A DNA stretch of 64,000 bases from Candidatus Nomurabacteria bacterium (GTDB lineage: Bacteria > Patescibacteriota > Minisyncoccia > Phycocordibacterales > SBAW01): the NCBI GenBank assembly GCA_943349945.1, contig CALQZS010000002.1, forward strand, positions 115,750 through 179,749, in the 5' to 3' direction. Position numbers and translations under genes: made by a program. Under the pieces are notes generated by a model. The model was given only the letters and a program-made list of their open reading frames with translations, searched no databases and was not told where the DNA came from. The stretch's first letter is position 1; every line of letters begins with the position of its first letter. Positions 24,418-57,910 of this stretch are shown one piece after another.

Positions 24418-24689
24418 GTGGATGTCTCCTTATGTGTGTGTTCTGTAGCCATATGCATACTAACACAAGTATATGTTTTTGTAAAGTTTTTGCTCCGGCG
24501 CCAAGATAGGACTCGGCTCCGCATAAAAACTTTATCGTCATAAAGTTTTTTGCTAGCCGCGCCTCGCTCCCACGTCTGCTGACGCGGGGCCCGCTCCGGC
24601 GTTCGAGTCCTGGACGGAAGTGTCCCACACTTCCTCGCCTGGGGCTTGTAACGCAAAAATCGCCCAAAGGCGATTTGTTGCTAACCAAG

Positions 24690-24991
24690 CTCCGGCGCCA
24701 GGACTCGAACCTGGAACCAACTCCTTACACGTGAATCCCCCATTGCTGCGGGCGTGGACTATATCATCATCCCAACTTACAGGAAGTTGTCGGATGCGAG
24801 GCGCTTCGCGCTGCAAATCGCAGAGCTACTCCCTTGCGGGATAGTCTCTACACCTTCCCCAACATAACGTCGGGACTTGGCTCGGGATTGCCCCAAAGGG
24901 GTTTCCCCGAATTCACCTCGTTTTTCAATTCAGATTCCTCTGAAAGGCTGCCTTTAGACAGGGAGCTGCTCTACCATTGAGCTACACCGGA
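24690..24991 (-). tRNA. tRNA-Asn(GUU), interrupted in the anticodon loop by a 230-nt group I intron
   Basis: Exons fold as UCCGGUG-UA-GCUC-AAUGGUA-GAGC-A-GCUCC-CUGU|UAA-GGAGU-UGGUU-CCAGG-UUCGAGU-CCUGG-CGCCGGA-G. UCC acceptor start and G73 fit Asn. Confidence 0.65.
24728..24957 (-). ncRNA. Group I self-splicing intron
   Basis: P7 with R element GUAGAGACUAUC and S element GAUAUAGUCC. GCCAAGUCC P-like element. U at -1 paired to an internal guide GCAG. Terminal omega-G before UAAGGAGU. Confidence 0.65.
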
Positions 24992-25065
24992 ATATATCGA
25001 ACATTCAATATTATACATGTGTTTTTATTAATAACAAACTTAACACCTTGTGTTATACTTTTTGT

Positions 25066-50672: not shown

Positions 50673-53600
50673 TTAGATAACTTCGGACTCTACTACCTCG
50701 GGTGCCGCAGCATATTTATTGACCAGGCGCTCTTTAGGAGAACCTTTGAAGCCAGTACCTGCTGGAATAAGACGACCGATGATAACGTTTTCTTTAAGAC
50801 CTTCGAGGCGGTCTACACTACCGTACATTGCTGCTTTGATAAGCATACGAGTGGTGTTTTGGAAGGACGCTGCAGAGAGGAAGCTCTGACGAGAAAGCGA
50901 GACGTCCAAAATTCCCATCACCAATGGCTCGCTCTTTGCAGGCTCGCCACCATCTTGTACCGCTTTTTCGCTTGCATCGCGCAAGTCGCTTTCGCTGGTT
51001 ACATCGCCGACAGAGTACTCGGTGCCACCTTGGTCGGTGACGCGCACGCGCGAGAACATCTGGCGCACAATGGTCTCCAAGTGTTTTGCCGAGATACTTG
51101 CACCCTGGAGTTCGTAGATTTTTACCACCTCCGAGATCAAGTACTCTTGTGTACGCTCTTTGCCCGCGTACTTAAAGAGGTCGGACAGGTCGGCTGAACC
51201 GTCGGTCAAGAGTTGCCCCTTGGTGATGCGCTCCCCAACTTTGACAAGCGGGATGCGGCGGAAGTTTACATCGTACTCAATAGTTTCTTTTTTGCCTTTA
51301 CCACGGAATTCGAGGTCTGGAGTTATAACCAACACCTTTTCTTTGCCTTCGTCGCGGATCTCGAGCACCTCGCCCGAGACAGTTGCCACAATGGCAGGGT
51401 TGCGTGGCATGCGGCGCTCGAAGATTTCTTCAACACGTGGCAAACCTTGGGTGATGTCGCCACCTACAGAGGCTGCACCGCCGGCGTGGAAGGTACGCAT
51501 AGTGAGCTGGGTTCCTGGCTCGCCGATCGCCTGTGCGGCCACAGTACCCACAGCCTCGCCGAGTGCCACTGGTTTGGTGGTACCGAGGTCTGCACCATAA
51601 CAGCGGGCACAGATACCACGGCCTGCACGGCAGCCAATAGGAGAGCGTACATAGACAGACGCGACACCCATCTCTTCAATATGCTTGGCGTCTGCTCCCG
51701 TCACAAAGTGGCCTTTTTTGTAGATAACCTTACCTTCGGCTTCTACATCGCCTGCCAAGTAACGGCCAGTGATGTTTTGTGCCAAGAAGGTGCCGATACC
51801 CGACGCACTTTCGCGCTTAATAGTGAGGCCTTCTTTAGTGTCGCAATCATCGTGGGCAATAACCACGTCCTGCGCAACATCAAAGAGTCGGCGTGTCAGG
51901 TACCCTGCTTTTGCAGTGTTGAGCGCGGTGTCCGACAGACCTTTACGCGAACCGTGTGTAGTGATGAAGTACTCCAGCGGAGTCAAACCTTCTTTCATAG
52001 ACTTGGTAATTGGGAACTCAATTGCCTCGCCCGTTGGAGATGCGATGAGGCCTTTCATACCGGCCATCTGCGTTACTTGCGCCACCGAACCGCGGGCGCC
52101 CGAGCGCAACATGTCAGACACCGAGCCGTTGTCCGGCAGGGTCGCTGGCATCAACTTCTCTACCTCAGACTTGGCAGCATGCCAGACTTCGATGTTCATA
52201 CGGTAACGCTCTTCTTCCGACAACAAGCCGTCTTGCCAGTGTTTGACCACCTGTGCAGATTTTGCTTCTGCGGCTTCGACGATGTCGTTCTTCTCTTTTG
52301 GTACGCGGATGTCGTCGAGCGACCAAGTGATACCCGACTGGGTAACGTAGCGGAAGCCGAAGTTCTTGATACGGTCCAAGATCTCTGGGATTTTCTCTAG
52401 GCCGTAGCGTGCAATAAGGTCGTCTATCAACTTGGACAGCGCCTTCTTGTCGATACTTGCGTTAATGAATGGATAGTCACTTGGGAAGACTGTGTTGAAG
52501 AGCAGTCGGCCGACAGTAGTTTCGAAGATCTGACCACCAAAGGCGGCATACTTCTCTTTTTCTGACGGCATGACTTTTATCTTTGCTTGGAAGCCCACAT
52601 GACCGTAGTCGTATGCAAGGATGGCGCTGTTTGGATTTGGGAATGCCATACCCTCGCCCTTTGCACCCACCACCTCTTTGGTCATCCAGTAGGTGCCGAG
52701 CAAGATGTCGAGCAACTTGGTCGCAACCACAGGTTCTGAGTTACCAGGTTTGAGGATGTTTTTGGTTGCGGACATAATCTCGCGTGCCTCGGTTTGAGCC
52801 TCGGGAGACAACGGCACGTGCACCGCCATTTGGTCGCCGTCGAAGTCTGCGTTAAACGCTGGACATACAAGCGGGTGGAGCTGGATAGCGTTACCCTCGA
52901 TCAAGATAGGCTGGAAAGCTTGGATACCCAGACGGTGCAAGGTTGGTGCGCGGTTAAGCAACACGTACTTGTCGCGGATAACATCTTCGAGTATCGCCCA
53001 CACCTCTGGTACTCCTTCGTCTATAAGACGACCAGCGCCACGAATGTTGTAGGCAAGCTCTTTTTCGAGCAATTTGCCGATAACGAATGGGCGGAAGAGT
53101 TCCAGCGCCATGTGTTTTGGCAAACCACATTGATTAAGGCGAAGTTCAGGACCCACCACGATAACCGAGCGGCCCGAGTAGTCGACGCGCTTACCAAGCA
53201 AGTTCTGACGGAAGAGACCGTGTTTGCCCTTCAAGTTATCAGAGAGCGATTTGAGCGGACGTGTGCGAGCCTGGGTCGTAGCCGAAAACGCTGCACCACC
53301 GTGGCGTATAGAGTTGTCGACAAGTGCGTCGATTGCCTCCTGCAAGATGCGCTTCTCGTTGCGCAAGATAACGTCTGGCGCGTGGATTTCTATCAGTTTT
53401 TTGAGACGGTTGTTGCGGTTTATCACGCGGCGGTAGAGGTCGTTTACATCCGAAGTTGCATGACGGCCGCCGTCGAGCGCAACCATAGGGCGTAGACCCG
53501 GTGGGATAACAGGAATGCGGGTTAGGAACATCCACTCTGGGCGAACGTTTGCCCGGATCATACCGCGCAAAATAGAGAGACGCTTGCCAAGTTTTTCGCG

Positions 53601-56600
53601 CTCAGCGGCACCTGCCTTCAAAAGTGCAGTCTCGGTATTTTCTGCCATCTCTTTGAGGTTGAGCTTTTTGCACAAGTCGTACATTGCCTCGGCGCCAATA
53701 CCCGCCTCGAACATTGCACCGTACTTGATTACATAACGGTGGTATTTTGGCTCGTCAAGCACAGAGCCGACAAAGATAGACTCGATGTCGCGCTTTGCCT
53801 CGAGGAAGAGTTCTTTCATTTTGTCCTTAGACTTTTCGTCTTGAAGGTTTTTGAGTTTTTGTTTGTATTCGCTCTCAAGTTCGCCTACGATGCGCTCCTT
53901 TTCTGCTTTGTGCACCTGCGTCACTATGTAGCCTGCGAAGTAGACTACCTTTTCGAGGTCGCCACCGGAGATGCCAAGCACCATAGAGAGGCGCGACGGA
54001 ATAGCGCGAAGGAACCATACGTGCGCTACCGGCACTGCCAAGTCGACATGGCCCATGCGCTCGCGACGCACAATTGCACGAGTGATTTCGACGCCACATT
54101 TTTCACAGACAATACCTTTGTAGCGGATGCCGCGGTATTTGCCACAGTAACATTCGTAGTCGCGCTCTGGCCCGAAGATCTTTTCGTCAAAGAGTGAGTT
54201 TTTCTCTGGGCGCTGGGTACGGTAGTTGATGGTTTCTGGCTTGGTAACCTCGCCGTGCGACCATTCAAGAATTTTTTCAGGAGACGCTGGGCGGATGCGG
54301 ACAGCGTCAAAGTCAGACACCTCAGACCCAGGACCTTTGCGCACGCCCATAGGCTGGCCGCCGCGCATAAGCTCTACGTCGAGTGCCAAACCGCGAAGGG
54401 TGTGCAAGAGAACGTTAAACGACGCTGGTGCGTAGTGGTGGTTGATACGCTCGCCACGGACAATAGAGTCGAATGCAGCAGAGCGGCCCATGATGTCGTC
54501 GGACTTGATGGTGAGCATCTCGCGAAGGGTGTAGGCAGCACCATAGCCCAGGAGCGCCCACACTTCCATTTCTCCAAAACGCTGACCACCACCTTGCGCC
54601 TTACCACCAAGCGGCTGCTGGGTAATAAGCGAGTAGGGTCCAATAGAGCGCATGTGGATTTTATCTTCCACCATGTGGTGCAGCTTGAGGATGTACATGT
54701 AGCCAACGGAGATATCCTGCTCGAACTGCTCGCCGGTGCGGCCGTCGAAGAGCTTCATCTTGCCGTTTTCGTTGAAGCCTGCTTTTTTGAGCTCGCCGCG
54801 GATTTCTTCGTCAGTTGCTCCTGCAAATGGAGGACAAATTGCTTGGTAGTTGAGGCTGTTTGCCGCAAGCCCCAAGTGGAGCTCGAGGATTTGTCCTAGG
54901 TTCATACGGCTTGGCACACCAAGTGGGGTCAGAATCACGTCCACTGGGCGACCATCTTCCATGTATGGCATGTCTTCCTCGGGCAAGATGCGCGAGATAA
55001 CACCTTTGTTACCGTGGCGGCCTGCAAGTTTGTCGCCCACAGACACAGTGCGGAGCTGTGCTATTTCGATATGAATGCGCTTGATGATACCGCTTTCGAG
55101 CTGGTGCCCTGCTTCGCGGGAAAATACCTTAACGCCAATGATGCGGCCACGCTTGCCGTTTTCCATCCGGAGAGACGAGTCTTTTACATCGCGCGCTTTG
55201 TCGCCAAAGATACTGCGGAGCAAACGTTCCTCTGGGGTAAGTTGTGTTTCGCCTTTTGGTGTGATTTTACCTACCAAGATGTCGCCTGGGCGGACTTCCG
55301 AGCCAGTGCGGATAACGCCGTCCTCGTCGAGGTTGCGGAGCTTTGCTTCCGACACGTTAGGGATGTCGTGAGTGGTCTCTTCTGGCCCAAGCTTGGTGTC
55401 ACGGACGTTGCAGACAAACTCTTCGATATGGATAGAGGCGAATTTAGAATTTTTGACGAGACGCTCAGAGATGATGATTGCGTCTTCGTAGTTTGCACCC
55501 GACCAGCACATAAACGCCACGAGGGCGTTCTGGCCAAGCGCCAACTGACCTTGGTCTGAGGTAGAAGTATCGGCAAGCAAGTCGCCTTTTTTGACCTTGG
55601 TACCCACAGACACTGCTGGGCGGCCGTGCAGCGCGGTGAAGCCGTTGGTGCGTACGAAGTTAACAATTGGGTACTCTACTTCTTTACCCTTTTCGTTTTT
55701 GACCTTGATGCGCTTACCGTCTGCCTGAGTTACCACACCTGCCTCTTTGGCAATAATCAAACGGCCAGTGTCGCGCGCAGCGCGTTCTTCCATGCCGGTT
55801 GCCACAAGCGGAGCTTCAGGGATGATGCAGGGAGTAGCCTGCTTTTGCATGTTCGAACCCATGAGTGCGCGGTTTGCGTCGTCGTGCTCGAGGAATGGGA
55901 TCATCGAGGTTGCGATAGAAAATGGCTGCGCTGGGTCAACGTCGATGTAGTTTACGTCTTTGCGGGCAACACGGGTTGGTGAGCCGTTGAGGCGCACCTC
56001 CACCATGTCCTCAACAATCTTGCCGTCGTCTGCAACTTTTGTTGCACCGTGTGCAATTATTTGTTTTTCTTCTTCGGCTGCGTTTAGGTACACTACCTCG
56101 CCTGTAACATGGCCGTTCGCCACCTTTACATACGGAGTTTCGATCATGCCGAACTCATTGAGCCGCGCAAAAGTCGAGAGACGCAAAATAAGGCCGATGT
56201 TGGGGCCTTCTGGGGTGTGGATTGGGCACAGACGTCCGTAGTGCGATGGGTGCACGTCGCGTACCTCAAAACCGGCACGCTCGCGGGTCAAACCTCCTGG
56301 ACCCAAGGCCGAGAGTGTACGCAAGTGCTCGAGCTCGGTCAGCGCGTTTTCTTGCTGCATGAACTGCGAAAGCTGGTTGGTGGTGAAAAATTCTTTGATG
56401 CGTGCTTGCAGCGGGCGCGGGTTTACGAACTGCTGCGGCATAGTTGCATCCGTGTCGATAGTCGACATGCGGTCCTGGATATTGCGCTTCATGTGGGTCA
56501 AACCAACACGCAAGCGCTGCTGGAGCATCTCGCCCACATAGCGTACGCGGCGGGACCCAAGGTGGTCGATGTTGTCTTCCATCGCCTCTGGGTCATGCTC

Positions 56601-57506
56601 GAGCTTGAGCACATGGTCGAGCACGACCACCACGTCTGCGAGAGAGAGTGTTTTACGGGTAAGCTCTTTTTCGTCGAGCGACTTTTCGAATCGCTGGTTA
56701 AAGCGGTAGCGACCAACACGAGAAAGGTCGTAGCGGTCTTCGCTAAAGATAGAGTCTATATATTCGCGGGCGTTTGCGGCCGTTGCCAAGTCGCCATCGC
56801 GCAGGCGCTTGTGGATTTCGATGTATGCCTCCTCGACTGTTTTTGCAGGATCGTTTTCGAGCGCCTCTGCCATCCACTGCTTGCCGTACTCTGACTGCGC
56901 AAACAATGCCTGCAAGTCTTGGTTGCTGTGTGCACCAAGCACTCGGAGCAAGGAAGTTGCGGGGAACTTGCGCTTGCGGTCGATGCGCACCTGGAGCTGG
57001 CCGTCGGCATCTGCCTCTATTTCTATCCATGCGCCACGGGCAGGGATTATCTTTGCACCAAAGTGGCGCTTGCCCTTGACCTCGTCTGCGGTAAAAAATA
57101 CGCCGTATGAGCGTGCGAGCTGTGGCACGATAACGCGCTCGACACCGTTTATCACAAAGGTGCCGTGCTCGGTCATCATAGGAAAATCAGCAAGAAAGAT
57201 TTCTTGCTCTTTTTCTGTACCCTGGGCTTTGTTTTTGAGCTTCACAATCGCACGCAATGGGATGTCGAGCGACATCTTTTGCGCCTTTGCGTAGTGCTCG
57301 TCGAACTTTGGCTCGCCCAACTCTATCTTTGAAAACTCAAGATCAAACTTTTTGCCCGAATAGTCCTTGATGGGGGTGAACTCTTTAAAAATTTCGCGAA
57401 CTCCTTCGGTGAGGAGCTGCTTGTATGAGTCTACTTGGGCAGCGACGAGGTTTGGGGTTTCTACGCGTGGGGTGCGGTAGCGGCTGAAAAACTTTTGTTC
57501 TCGCAT
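50673..57506 (-). CDS. rpoBC: Fused RNA polymerase beta-beta-prime subunit (RpoB-RpoC in one ORF)
   Basis: The RpoB C-terminus (…SFNVLLHTLRGLALDVELM) joins through an ~18-aa linker to the RpoC N-terminus (…FDAVRIRPASPEKILEWSHGEV…CGKYRG…CEKCGVEITR). NADFDGD is present. 2277 codons from the internal Met. Confidence 0.85.
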   Translation of the reverse strand: MREQKFFSRYRTPRVETPNLVAAQVDSYKQLLTEGVREIFKEFTPIKDYSGKKFDLEFSKIELGEPKFDEHYAKAQKMSLDIPLRAIVKLKNKAQGTEKEQEIFLADFPMMTEHGTFVINGVERVIVPQLARSYGVFFTADEVKGKRHFGAKIIPARGAWIEIEADADGQLQVRIDRKRKFPATSLLRVLGAHSNQDLQALFAQSEYGKQWMAEALENDPAKTVEEAYIEIHKRLRDGDLATAANAREYIDSIFSEDRYDLSRVGRYRFNQRFEKSLDEKELTRKTLSLADVVVVLDHVLKLEHDPEAMEDNIDHLGSRRVRYVGEMLQQRLRVGLTHMKRNIQDRMSTIDTDATMPQQFVNPRPLQARIKEFFTTNQLSQFMQQENALTELEHLRTLSALGPGGLTRERAGFEVRDVHPSHYGRLCPIHTPEGPNIGLILRLSTFARLNEFGMIETPYVKVANGHVTGEVVYLNAAEEEKQIIAHGATKVADDGKIVEDMVEVRLNGSPTRVARKDVNYIDVDPAQPFSIATSMIPFLEHDDANRALMGSNMQKQATPCIIPEAPLVATGMEERAARDTGRLIIAKEAGVVTQADGKRIKVKNEKGKEVEYPIVNFVRTNGFTALHGRPAVSVGTKVKKGDLLADTSTSDQGQLALGQNALVAFMCWSGANYEDAIIISERLVKNSKFASIHIEEFVCNVRDTKLGPEETTHDIPNVSEAKLRNLDEDGVIRTGSEVRPGDILVGKITPKGETQLTPEERLLRSIFGDKARDVKDSSLRMENGKRGRIIGVKVFSREAGHQLESGIIKRIHIEIAQLRTVSVGDKLAGRHGNKGVISRILPEEDMPYMEDGRPVDVILTPLGVPSRMNLGQILELHLGLAANSLNYQAICPPFAGATDEEIRGELKKAGFNENGKMKLFDGRTGEQFEQDISVGYMYILKLHHMVEDKIHMRSIGPYSLITQQPLGGKAQGGGQRFGEMEVWALLGYGAAYTLREMLTIKSDDIMGRSAAFDSIVRGERINHHYAPASFNVLLHTLRGLALDVELMRGGQPMGVRKGPGSEVSDFDAVRIRPASPEKILEWSHGEVTKPETINYRTQRPEKNSLFDEKIFGPERDYECYCGKYRGIRYKGIVCEKCGVEITRAIVRRERMGHVDLAVPVAHVWFLRAIPSRLSMVLGISGGDLEKVVYFAGYIVTQVHKAEKERIVGELESEYKQKLKNLQDEKSKDKMKELFLEAKRDIESIFVGSVLDEPKYHRYVIKYGAMFEAGIGAEAMYDLCKKLNLKEMAENTETALLKAGAAEREKLGKRLSILRGMIRANVRPEWMFLTRIPVIPPGLRPMVALDGGRHATSDVNDLYRRVINRNNRLKKLIEIHAPDVILRNEKRILQEAIDALVDNSIRHGGAAFSATTQARTRPLKSLSDNLKGKHGLFRQNLLGKRVDYSGRSVIVVGPELRLNQCGLPKHMALELFRPFVIGKLLEKELAYNIRGAGRLIDEGVPEVWAILEDVIRDKYVLLNRAPTLHRLGIQAFQPILIEGNAIQLHPLVCPAFNADFDGDQMAVHVPLSPEAQTEAREIMSATKNILKPGNSEPVVATKLLDILLGTYWMTKEVVGAKGEGMAFPNPNSAILAYDYGHVGFQAKIKVMPSEKEKYAAFGGQIFETTVGRLLFNTVFPSDYPFINASIDKKALSKLIDDLIARYGLEKIPEILDRIKNFGFRYVTQSGITWSLDDIRVPKEKNDIVEAAEAKSAQVVKHWQDGLLSEEERYRMNIEVWHAAKSEVEKLMPATLPDNGSVSDMLRSGARGSVAQVTQMAGMKGLIASPTGEAIEFPITKSMKEGLTPLEYFITTHGSRKGLSDTALNTAKAGYLTRRLFDVAQDVVIAHDDCDTKEGLTIKRESASGIGTFLAQNITGRYLAGDVEAEGKVIYKKGHFVTGADAKHIEEMGVASVYVRSPIGCRAGRGICARCYGADLGTTKPVALGEAVGTVAAQAIGEPGTQLTMRTFHAGGAASVGGDITQGLPRVEEIFERRMPRNPAIVATVSGEVLEIRDEGKEKVLVITPDLEFRGKGKKETIEYDVNFRRIPLVKVGERITKGQLLTDGSADLSDLFKYAGKERTQEYLISEVVKIYELQGASISAKHLETIVRQMFSRVRVTDQGGTEYSVGDVTSESDLRDASEKAVQDGGEPAKSEPLVMGILDVSLSRQSFLSAASFQNTTRMLIKAAMYGSVDRLEGLKENVIIGRLIPAGTGFKGSPKERLVNKYAAAPEVVESEVI

Positions 57507-57910
57507 AATGAGTTTTGGATGAAGGCCGTTAATAATAAGTTGCTTGTAATCGCACGTTACTAAAAAATCTCGGGAGCTGCTTTGCCATAAACCAACTATG
57601 GTCAAGAGAGCTATCCACAGAGCCAAAACGCGAAAAAAGCGAGCGCATATACGCTCCCCCGCTTGGCCTCTGCGCCTCGCTTTAGGTGATTATTGCTAAC
57701 CACTATTCAATTGTGTCGAAACTTCAGCCCATAACTCATTCAATTTGAAGGTTTTAGCCTCCAAATGCCCCGCTTTGTTTCATTTACTATTGTACTCCCC
57801 TGGTTTGGGGTGTCAAGCGAATTTCCCCAGCCATGCCTAGTTTTAGAGTTCTGCACACCTTTTACTATATAAAACTGGACAAAAACTGACATTTACTGCA
57901 TATTATTTTC

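Follow-up and report, generated by a model that had tools for sequence, protein, structure and literature searches.

The 64,000-nucleotide (nt) stretch of a Candidatus Nomurabacteria contig analysed here (the window) carries on its minus strand, at 24991-24690, a gene for tRNA-Asn(GUU) that consists of a 34-nt 5' exon, a 230-nt group I intron and a 38-nt 3' exon. We are highly confident that this is an intact tRNA-Asn(GUU) gene of Paceibacteria (Patescibacteria, or candidate phyla radiation, CPR), split between positions 35 and 36 by an intron without an open reading frame (ORF), and we establish below its sequence, fold, covariation, insertion site, host identity and conservation. The locus is a new member of a family described by Nakagawa, Amikura, Omae and Suzuki (bioRxiv 10.1101/2025.07.03.662931, July 2025; mSystems, January 2026, PMC13011429), who found group I introns at 35/36 in 15 tRNA-Asn(GUU) and 3 tRNA-Asp(GUC) genes of complete Patescibacteria genomes. 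It is absent from their tables, which hold complete genomes only.

A split tRNA-Asn gene in Patescibacteria

The joined exons fold into a 72-nt cloverleaf with a UCC acceptor start and G73, as an earlier sequence-only reading of this DNA had described, and ARAGORN calls them tRNA-Asn(gtt). That reading placed the feature at 24690-24991, which is exact, although it omitted the strand, which is the minus strand. The 3' exon supplies UAA, the 3' strand of the anticodon stem, the variable loop, the T arm, the 3' strand of the acceptor stem and G73; CCA is absent from the gene, G73 being followed by CTT. The intron starts with CUAAAGGCAGCC and ends with ...CACGUG, the whole insert reading CTAAAGGCAGCC...TTCACGTG. 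The coordinates of all features are collected in Table 1.

With default settings ARAGORN makes no tRNA call across the 64 kb. RF00028, the Rfam family of group I introns, is the only Rfam family at threshold in the window, and it matches the minus strand with 67.2 bits against a gathering score of 50 (E 7.3e-15), bearing out the intron type proposed from the letters alone; in the related contigs L001-L003 the match reaches 65.9 bits. The 5' end of this alignment (25022-24946) is misplaced onto the promoter and the 5' exon, while the core is aligned well from P3 onward.

Two sets of related loci were used for comparison: 80 loci from GTDB species representatives, fetched via the neighbouring HNH protein described below, and 120 metagenomic contigs carrying an identical 28-nt stretch of the 5' exon, from the D arm to CTGT. 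Orthologous tRNA-Asn loci, the comparison that the sequence-only reading had proposed, turned out to occur both with the intron and without it. The best uninterrupted metagenomic tRNA-Asn genes are identical to the joined exons at 68 of the 72 positions, and the differences are compensatory in stems. Against the tRNAs of PMC13011429, the joined exons are 76-82% identical to Patescibacteria tRNA-Asn and 62-66% identical to tRNA-Asp; their U1-A72 pair and G73 are conserved in all the published Patescibacteria tRNA-Asn that we aligned.

Table 1. Features of the tRNA-Asn locus and its surroundings (positions in the window; pairing counts refer to the 21 aligned introns)
Feature	Position	Strand	Details
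tRNA-Asn 5' exon, positions 1-35	24958..24991	-	TCCGGTGTAGCTCAATGGTAGAGCAGCTCCCTGT; ends ...CCCUGU, U35 directly before the splice site
Group I intron, 230 nt, no ORF	24728..24957	-	RF00028 67.2 bits; terminal G (omega-G) = 24728
tRNA-Asn 3' exon, positions 36-73	24690..24727	-	TAAGGAGTTGGTTCCAGGTTCGAGTCCTGGCGCCGGAG; UAAGGAG...CGCCGGAG
P1, exon CUGU 24961-24958 / internal guide GCAG 24951-24948	24948..24961	-	4 pairs, invariant in 21/21
P2, hairpin UUCAGA-GGAA-UCUGAA	24929..24944	-	compensatory at 6/6 pairs
P3, 24920-24914 with 24803-24797	domain 24797..24920	-	compensatory at 1/7 pairs
P4	24910-24905/24887-24882	-	enclosed by P3; compensatory at 4/6 pairs
P5	24901-24898/24894-24891	-	enclosed by P3; compensatory at 2/4 pairs
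P6	24881-24879/24854-24852	-	enclosed by P3; invariant
P6a	24875-24869/24863-24857	-	enclosed by P3; compensatory at 7/7 pairs
P7, GACUA 24846-24842 with UAGUC 24761-24757	domain 24757..24846	-	invariant in 21/21
P7.1	24841-24838/24833-24830	-	GCAA loop; between P7 strands; 100% paired; compensatory at 2/4
P7.2	24826-24820/24814-24808	-	between P7 strands; 82% paired; compensatory at 7/7
P8/P8a	24795-24784/24778-24769	-	between P7 strands; compensatory at 7/10
P9, hairpin with GCAA tetraloop	24737..24752	-	compensatory at 4/6 pairs; 85.7% of cells paired
Promoter-like TTGTTA-16-TATAAT	25010..25037	-	about 12-19 nt upstream of tRNA position 1; consensus scan 10/12
Terminator-like hairpin AAATCGCC-TTTG-GGCGATTT, then T's	24657..24676	-	read from the sequence; conserved in L002
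Partial direct copy of the tRNA 3' end (GAGTCCTATCTTGGCGCCGGAGC)	24492..24514	-	184 nt downstream of the gene
Free-standing HNH protein gene, 114 amino acids	25066..25410	+	divergent from the tRNA, 75 nt from its 5' end
Palindrome TAACAC-CTT-GTGTTA	25041..25055	+	overlaps the -10 box of the HNH gene (TATACT), 10 nt before ATG
Two hairpins 3' of the HNH stop codon	25412-25526	+	TTTGAGAAT...ATTCTCAAA (variable interior), then GCGTGGGTG-loop-CACCCACGC and a T-rich run

Fold and covariation of the intron

The helices were assigned manually, with the Rfam alignment and relatives as guides, and the fold was then evaluated on alignment A2, built with MAFFT from 21 orthologous introns of different species and not fitted to the structure. 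Standard pairs occupy 93.8% of the 1349 cells, whereas sliding the 3' partners by 1-3 columns lowers the share to 34-45%. Changes on both sides are seen in 40 of the 69 pairs, and none of 500 shuffles reached the observed covariation score. Helices P2, P6a and P7.2 vary at every pair, while P1, P6 and P7 are invariant and hence carry no covariation evidence. Also invariant is J8/7 (GAUGAUAUAGUCC), and a terminal G is conserved at the end of all 21 introns. P3 and P7 cross each other, forming the group I pseudoknot.

P1 closes a loop CUAAAG and sets a U35.G wobble at the splice site. Its internal guide occupies intron nucleotides 7-10 in the window and lies 7-17 nt into the intron across the 21 orthologues. 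A 4-bp P1 with a U·G pair and the guide GCAG, a P7 pairing and an omega-G had all been predicted by the sequence-only reading, and each has its place in the fold, with CUGU/GCAG unchanged in every orthologue and the G at 24728. The three motifs that it quoted, GUAGAGACUAUC, GAUAUAGUCC and GCCAAGUCC, are likewise all present, but the label of the last has to be changed: taken there for a P/Q-like element, it is the 5' strand of P6/P6a, which comes after the 3' strand of P4 (Q).

Subgroup IA is recognised by two additional helices, P7.1 and P7.2, which lie between P7 and the 3' strand of P3. The window intron has both of these peripheral helices, in agreement with the classification of Patescibacteria tRNA introns in PMC13011429, where those at 35/36 are nearly all assigned to subgroup IA and measure 184-894 nt.

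Function and splicing

The intron of the window is 95% identical to that of L002 and the exons are 100% identical, despite a synonymous divergence (dS) of 0.60 in the neighbouring gene, which indicates that the intron is under constraint. Outside the near-identical contigs L001-L003, the closest intron is that of L011, a Kaiserbacteria metagenome-assembled genome (MAG), with 82% identity. The feature is very probably functional. Self-splicing of this copy would follow by homology from two relatives for which it has been demonstrated: the introns of GCA_016700035.1 (Asn) and GCA_001029755.1 (Asp) self-splice in vitro in a manner dependent on guanosine triphosphate (GTP), as documented by sequencing of the ligated tRNA and by a terminal G-to-C control (PMC13011429).

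In the mechanism that we propose, the gene would be transcribed from its own extended -10 promoter and the intron would fold into the pseudoknotted P3-P7 core together with P4-P6, P8, P9 and the IA-type P7.1/P7.2. The internal guide GCAG would pair with C32-U35 of the tRNA, forming P1 with the U35.G wobble at the splice site, and an external guanosine would attack after U35. The guanosine site of P7 would then take up the terminal G (24728), and U35, through its freed 3'-OH, would attack before U36, restoring the anticodon loop CUGUUAA. Since no P10 is evident, the exons are probably held together by the anticodon stem. Finally, the tRNA ends would be trimmed and CCA would be added, after transcription because the gene does not encode it.

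Several points weigh against this account. The Asn intron that has been tested belongs to another class, Saccharimonadia. Blastn found no match between that intron and the window intron; the likeness between them consists of short core motifs, recognised by eye in the published sequence. A search by eye in the 5' region of the intron gave no convincing P10 pairing, P9 and P7.2 of the window contain one mismatch each, and the count of tRNA-Asn genes covers the 64 kb of the window. The two mismatches and the lack of a recognisable P10, together with the absence of an intron-encoded endonuclease and the possibility of a further tRNA-Asn copy elsewhere in the genome, could also be read as signs of a decayed, non-splicing relic in a tRNA pseudogene. 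We consider this very unlikely: the core elements are all intact, relatives differ by compensatory substitutions, the gene is flanked by a promoter-like site and a terminator-like hairpin, and the 5% difference from L002, with fully conserved exons, stands next to 0.6 substitutions per synonymous site in the adjacent gene.

A second alternative concerns the divergent gene for an HNH protein that lies beside the tRNA (Table 1). Some group I introns have maturases derived from endonucleases, and the linkage of the two genes is strong: a full-length HNH gene adjoins tRNA-Asn in 45 of 49 Paceibacteria species (37 times divergently and 8 times in the same orientation, immediately before the tRNA; of the four exceptions, three are contig ends), and an intron is present in 39 of these 45 tRNA genes. 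Splicing might accordingly be thought to need the HNH protein as a maturase, the intron not being autonomous. We hold this to be highly improbable and reject an obligatory maturase. No HNH gene is found nearby in 23 of 34 evaluable intron-bearing metagenomic alleles, from which it follows that the intron does not need the protein. Among close relatives, L091 is 94% identical over tRNA and intron and has no HNH gene, while in six species an HNH gene is kept beside an intron-less tRNA-Asn. Moreover, related introns splice in vitro free of protein (PMC13011429).

Position of the splice junction

Both junctions contain a copy of the dinucleotide GU (CCCU(GU)/C ... CAC(GU)G/UAAGG), so that the 230 nt could also be excised two bases upstream, yielding tRNA-Thr(UGU) with an intron at 33/34. 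The sequence-only reading was right in placing the intron at 35/36 of tRNA-Asn(GUU), but it overlooked this real ambiguity. ARAGORN with option -i does report tRNA-Thr(tgt) i(33,230), and owing to the repeat a Thr gene would still have U as the last base of the 5' exon and G as the last base of the intron.

Four lines of evidence decide for Asn and make a tRNA-Thr host hardly credible, for which reason we reject it: U33 would be left without a G partner in P1, whereas the CUGU/GCAG pairing is invariant in 21/21 sequences; orthologous introns of the same gene that end in ...AUG (L024, L025, L029, L053, L054, L031, L038 and others) would end in A if shifted; the syntenic intron-less orthologues L009, L015, L022, L030, L046 and L055 read CTGTTAA, that is, anticodon GUU, and 83 uninterrupted metagenomic genes with the same 5' exon read CCCTGTTAAGGAG; and the exons are of Asn type in their acceptor stem and G73, with the U1-A72 pair and G73 conserved as described above. 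The same miscall is known from the published family, in which ARAGORN and tFind assign many 35/36 introns to Thr(UGU) 33/34 and sequencing of a spliced product disproved the assignment (PMC13011429). The homologue spliced in that work has a near-identical intron start (uaaagGCAGCc, compared with cuaaagGCAGCc here) and shows the same GU ambiguity.

Intron lineages and intron-less alleles

At site 35/36, the surveyed loci carry introns of two lineages. Type A, to which the window intron belongs, has P7.1/P7.2; type B is compact (179-337 nt), has no P7.1/P7.2 and differs in the sequence of P3-P6 (L017/L005, L018, L019, L023, L027, L036 and others). Type B is related to the published introns of GCA_030583765.1 (Asn), GCA_023898525.1 (Asp) and GCA_016699995.1 (Tyr), and RF00028 often fails to detect it: there is no match in L005 and L017, and the scores are 33 bits in L036 and 50.1 bits in L027.

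The two types interleave among close relatives with identical tRNA anticodon arms, and one exon sequence, TCCGCGG...CCGCGGAG, was found with a type A intron, with a type B intron and without any intron. Because identical tRNA-Asn sequences carry type A, type B or no intron, the pattern argues for ongoing gain, loss and replacement of introns. The intron-less tRNA-Asn genes occur as the variants CTCCCTGTTAAGGAG and CTCGCTGTTAACGAG. Some metagenomic contigs end exactly at the junction of exon 1 and intron (L004, L007) or at the 3' end of the tRNA (L001); contig breaks at such points are expected where variants coexist in a population, or at repeats.

An HNH gene linked to tRNA-Asn

The 114-amino-acid HNH protein consists of an N-terminal CxxH...CxxC zinc ribbon, added in its own clade, and an HNH core. 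Over residues 31-113 the protein shares 46-55% identity (pairwise E 3e-32 to 3e-20) with the HNH ORFs of four published tRNA-Asn introns, all located inside the P1 loop. The clade has the motif NCHTEIE where the intronic proteins have NCHREIH, and since the last His of the HNH motif is thus a Glu, the catalytic competence of the protein is uncertain. Pfam HNH gives weak matches in 22 of 26 members. The AlphaFold model has a predicted local distance difference test (pLDDT) score of 91, and its best Foldseek matches in the PDB, although weak (E 0.09-1), are all HNH nucleases; a sequence search of solved structures with an HNH profile gave no meaningful match. The exact protein had no entry in the contig index. 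Homologues come from Paceibacteria (Paceibacterota) MAGs named Kaiser-, Adler-, Nomura- and Campbellbacteria, among others.

The gene is under strong purifying selection, with a ratio of nonsynonymous to synonymous substitutions (dN/dS) of 0.02-0.06, which reaches 0.13 in a single pair of greater divergence. Of the seven other ORFs that neighbour it in the window, not one recurs at a distance of up to 2 kb from the HNH gene in the 80 loci; we therefore reject the idea that it is an ordinary syntenic neighbour. Decayed copies also exist, with a stop codon in L033, truncations in L053-L055 and a remnant in L200. L091, the close relative without the gene, is a single short metagenomic contig in which about 110 unrelated bases stand in place of the approximately 400 nt with the HNH gene and promoter; beyond the HNH stop codon its identity to the window is 84%.

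Short homologues of the protein are encoded inside tRNA-Asn introns of 525-604 nt (about 17 loci) and, in 4 loci of Woesebacteria-like genomes, immediately upstream of tRNA-Asn. Homologues fused to a helix-turn-helix (HTH) domain are found some 15-30 nt upstream of intron-less tRNA-Pro(UGG) or tRNA-Cys(GCA) genes (L076-L087; Acidobacteria, Pyrinomonadaceae), so that the linkage of this HNH family to tRNA genes reaches beyond Patescibacteria. The converse association, from intron-bearing alleles to the HNH gene, is weak. The 34 evaluable intron-bearing metagenomic alleles include, besides the 23 already mentioned, 6 with a free-standing and 5 with an intronic HNH gene, as against 1 free-standing, 2 intronic and 68 without among 71 intron-less alleles (Fisher p = 0.004 for free-standing and 0.0002 for any HNH, without phylogenetic correction).

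Upstream of the gene, the palindrome of Table 1 may be an operator. Its full TAACAC-N3-GTGTTA form occurs once in the window, and a looser motif, AACA[CT]-N2-4-[GA]TGTT, precedes the HNH ATG in 31 of 37 divergent loci and 6 of 8 same-strand loci, overlapping the -10 box 8-10 nt before the ATG in most of them. Downstream, the second of the two hairpins is probably a terminator; both hairpins are conserved in L001-L003 and are kept in L091. In two loci a fragment of the 5' half of tRNA-Asn lies directly upstream of the HNH promoter (L055, approximately 1240-1325; L057, approximately 1910-1990). In L055, TTTGCAGC, a sequence similar to the intron start, follows the fragment, and this locus also has an intact tRNA-Asn downstream of the HNH gene. 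This arrangement suggests rearrangement around the HNH cassette.

Judging from these sequences, the protein may be a free-standing homing endonuclease, or else a domesticated derivative such as an autoregulated DNA-binding protein. A more specific proposal, which we regard as possible but doubtful, is that the endonuclease, derived from the intronic ones or ancestral to them, would target tRNA-Asn and mobilise in trans both itself and the ORF-less intron ('collaborative homing'). Such a process would explain why a single site, in tRNAs of identical sequence, is occupied alternately by two unrelated intron lineages or left without an intron, and why the HNH gene is found almost only beside tRNA-Asn and is enriched beside intron-bearing alleles.

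Flanking sequences and genomic context

The promoter-like motif upstream of the tRNA (TGTATAAT) is conserved in relatives, and TTGTTA-16-TATAAT would be the promoter of the gene. On the other side, a terminator scan did not call the hairpin at 24676-24657.

Further downstream, an inverted copy of the T arm (24601-24613) lies between the gene and the partial copy of its 3' end; the filler sequence in L002 is unrelated. Second copies of the tRNA 3' end are found 97-381 nt downstream in L023, L029, L034, L035, L050 and L078. Such copies could be the footprint, resembling an attachment site (att), of a small integrating element. Neither ARAGORN nor Rfam (E <= 1) detected a second tRNA or a transfer-messenger RNA (tmRNA) in 24490-24650.

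The window is a piece of a Patescibacteria chromosome, with genes for a fused rpoB-rpoC, ribonucleotide reductase, primase, class I lysyl-tRNA synthetase (LysRS), histidyl-tRNA synthetase (HisRS), a penicillin-binding protein (PBP) and MurA. The fused beta-beta' subunit is encoded on the minus strand at 50673-57626 by a single ORF of 2317 amino acids, with RpoB domains in 1-1087 followed by RpoC domains in 1105-2200.

Implications

The immediate consequence concerns annotation: default finders report no tRNA in the window, and intron-aware ones give the wrong amino acid. Genomes of this kind are scored as being without tRNA-Asn because the gene is missed or miscalled, and completeness estimates are distorted as a result, a point already made in PMC13011429. 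Our survey contributes about 40 species-level examples, of which the compact type B often falls below the Rfam threshold. The interest of the intron finding itself is modest, and the part that deserves follow-up is the linkage to the HNH gene. Should the protein be an active endonuclease, it would provide a cellular, non-phage system in which to study how ORF-less group I introns move and how endonucleases enter and leave introns. Horizontal transfer of these introns is limited according to the authors of PMC13011429, and collaborative homing, if true, would revise the view of essentially immobile introns; in that case the series of endonuclease positions (intronic, just upstream, divergent) would bear on the origin of mobile introns.

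Comparison with known systems

The window intron agrees with the family of PMC13011429 in phylum, host tRNA, insertion site, CUGU/GCAG P1 and size range, as well as in being missed by default tRNA finders and miscalled as Thr(UGU) 33/34. The sequence-only reading had implied that an Asn host with an insertion at 35/36 was new, which is out of date, this kind having been published in July 2025 and January 2026 (PMC13011429). Elements common to the window intron and the introns of Table S3 of that paper are the start, GGTGAATT..AGCCAAG..AGAGACTATCCC....GGGAGTAG, and GATATAGTCCAC (PMC13011429). Blastn with the window intron gave partial matches to GCA_026016225.1, GCA_016699245.1 and GCA_025999335.1; these three Paceibacteria members of Table S3 match its P7.1/P7.2 block and have the same IA-like architecture (PMC13011429). 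The family differs in that the strongest blastn match, GCA_026016225.1, covers just 118 of the 230 nt, and in that the paper makes no mention of a free-standing HNH gene beside the tRNA; nor did we find a report of such a gene beside tRNA-Asn elsewhere in the literature. The guide GCAGC is present also in published Asn, Asp and Tyr 35/36 introns.

The classical bacterial tRNA introns are those of cyanobacterial and plastid tRNA-Leu(UAA) at 34/35, tRNA-fMet at 33/34, Azoarcus tRNA-Ile(CAU) and Agrobacterium tRNA-Arg(CCU) at 36/37. They belong to subgroup IC3 and have no P7.1/P7.2. Subgroup IC accounts for 81% of bacterial tRNA introns (PMC13011429). The window intron resembles the classical ones as a small, ORF-less ribozyme of the anticodon loop, with a P1 formed in that loop, a U.G pair at the splice site and a terminal G, but differs from them in host tRNA and insertion position.

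Phage introns of subgroup IA, such as those of T4 td, nrdB and nrdD/sunY, have P7.1/P7.2 and are associated with HNH or GIY-YIG endonucleases. With these the window intron shares the extra P7.1/P7.2 between P7 and the 3' strand of P3 and the association with an HNH gene. The phage introns, however, interrupt protein-coding genes of phages, whereas the host of the window intron is a tRNA gene on the chromosome of a cellular organism. A phage origin was rejected, as megablast of 14000-36000 against phage records returned nothing and the window carries chromosomal housekeeping genes.

For the HNH gene, the nearest parallels are endonuclease genes that work beside an intron. In cyanophages, the free-standing endonuclease F-CphI reportedly acts beside the intron of psbA, in what is called 'collaborative homing'. 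In T4, MobE, next to the nrdB intron whose I-TevIII is defective (PMC2790892), is likewise an endonuclease gene outside an intron and beside the gene that bears it. The HNH gene is like MobE and F-CphI in being present or absent between close relatives and in having homologues inside introns at the same site. It differs from the typical, sporadic phage endonuclease genes in being strongly conserved and in looking largely vertical across the whole class.

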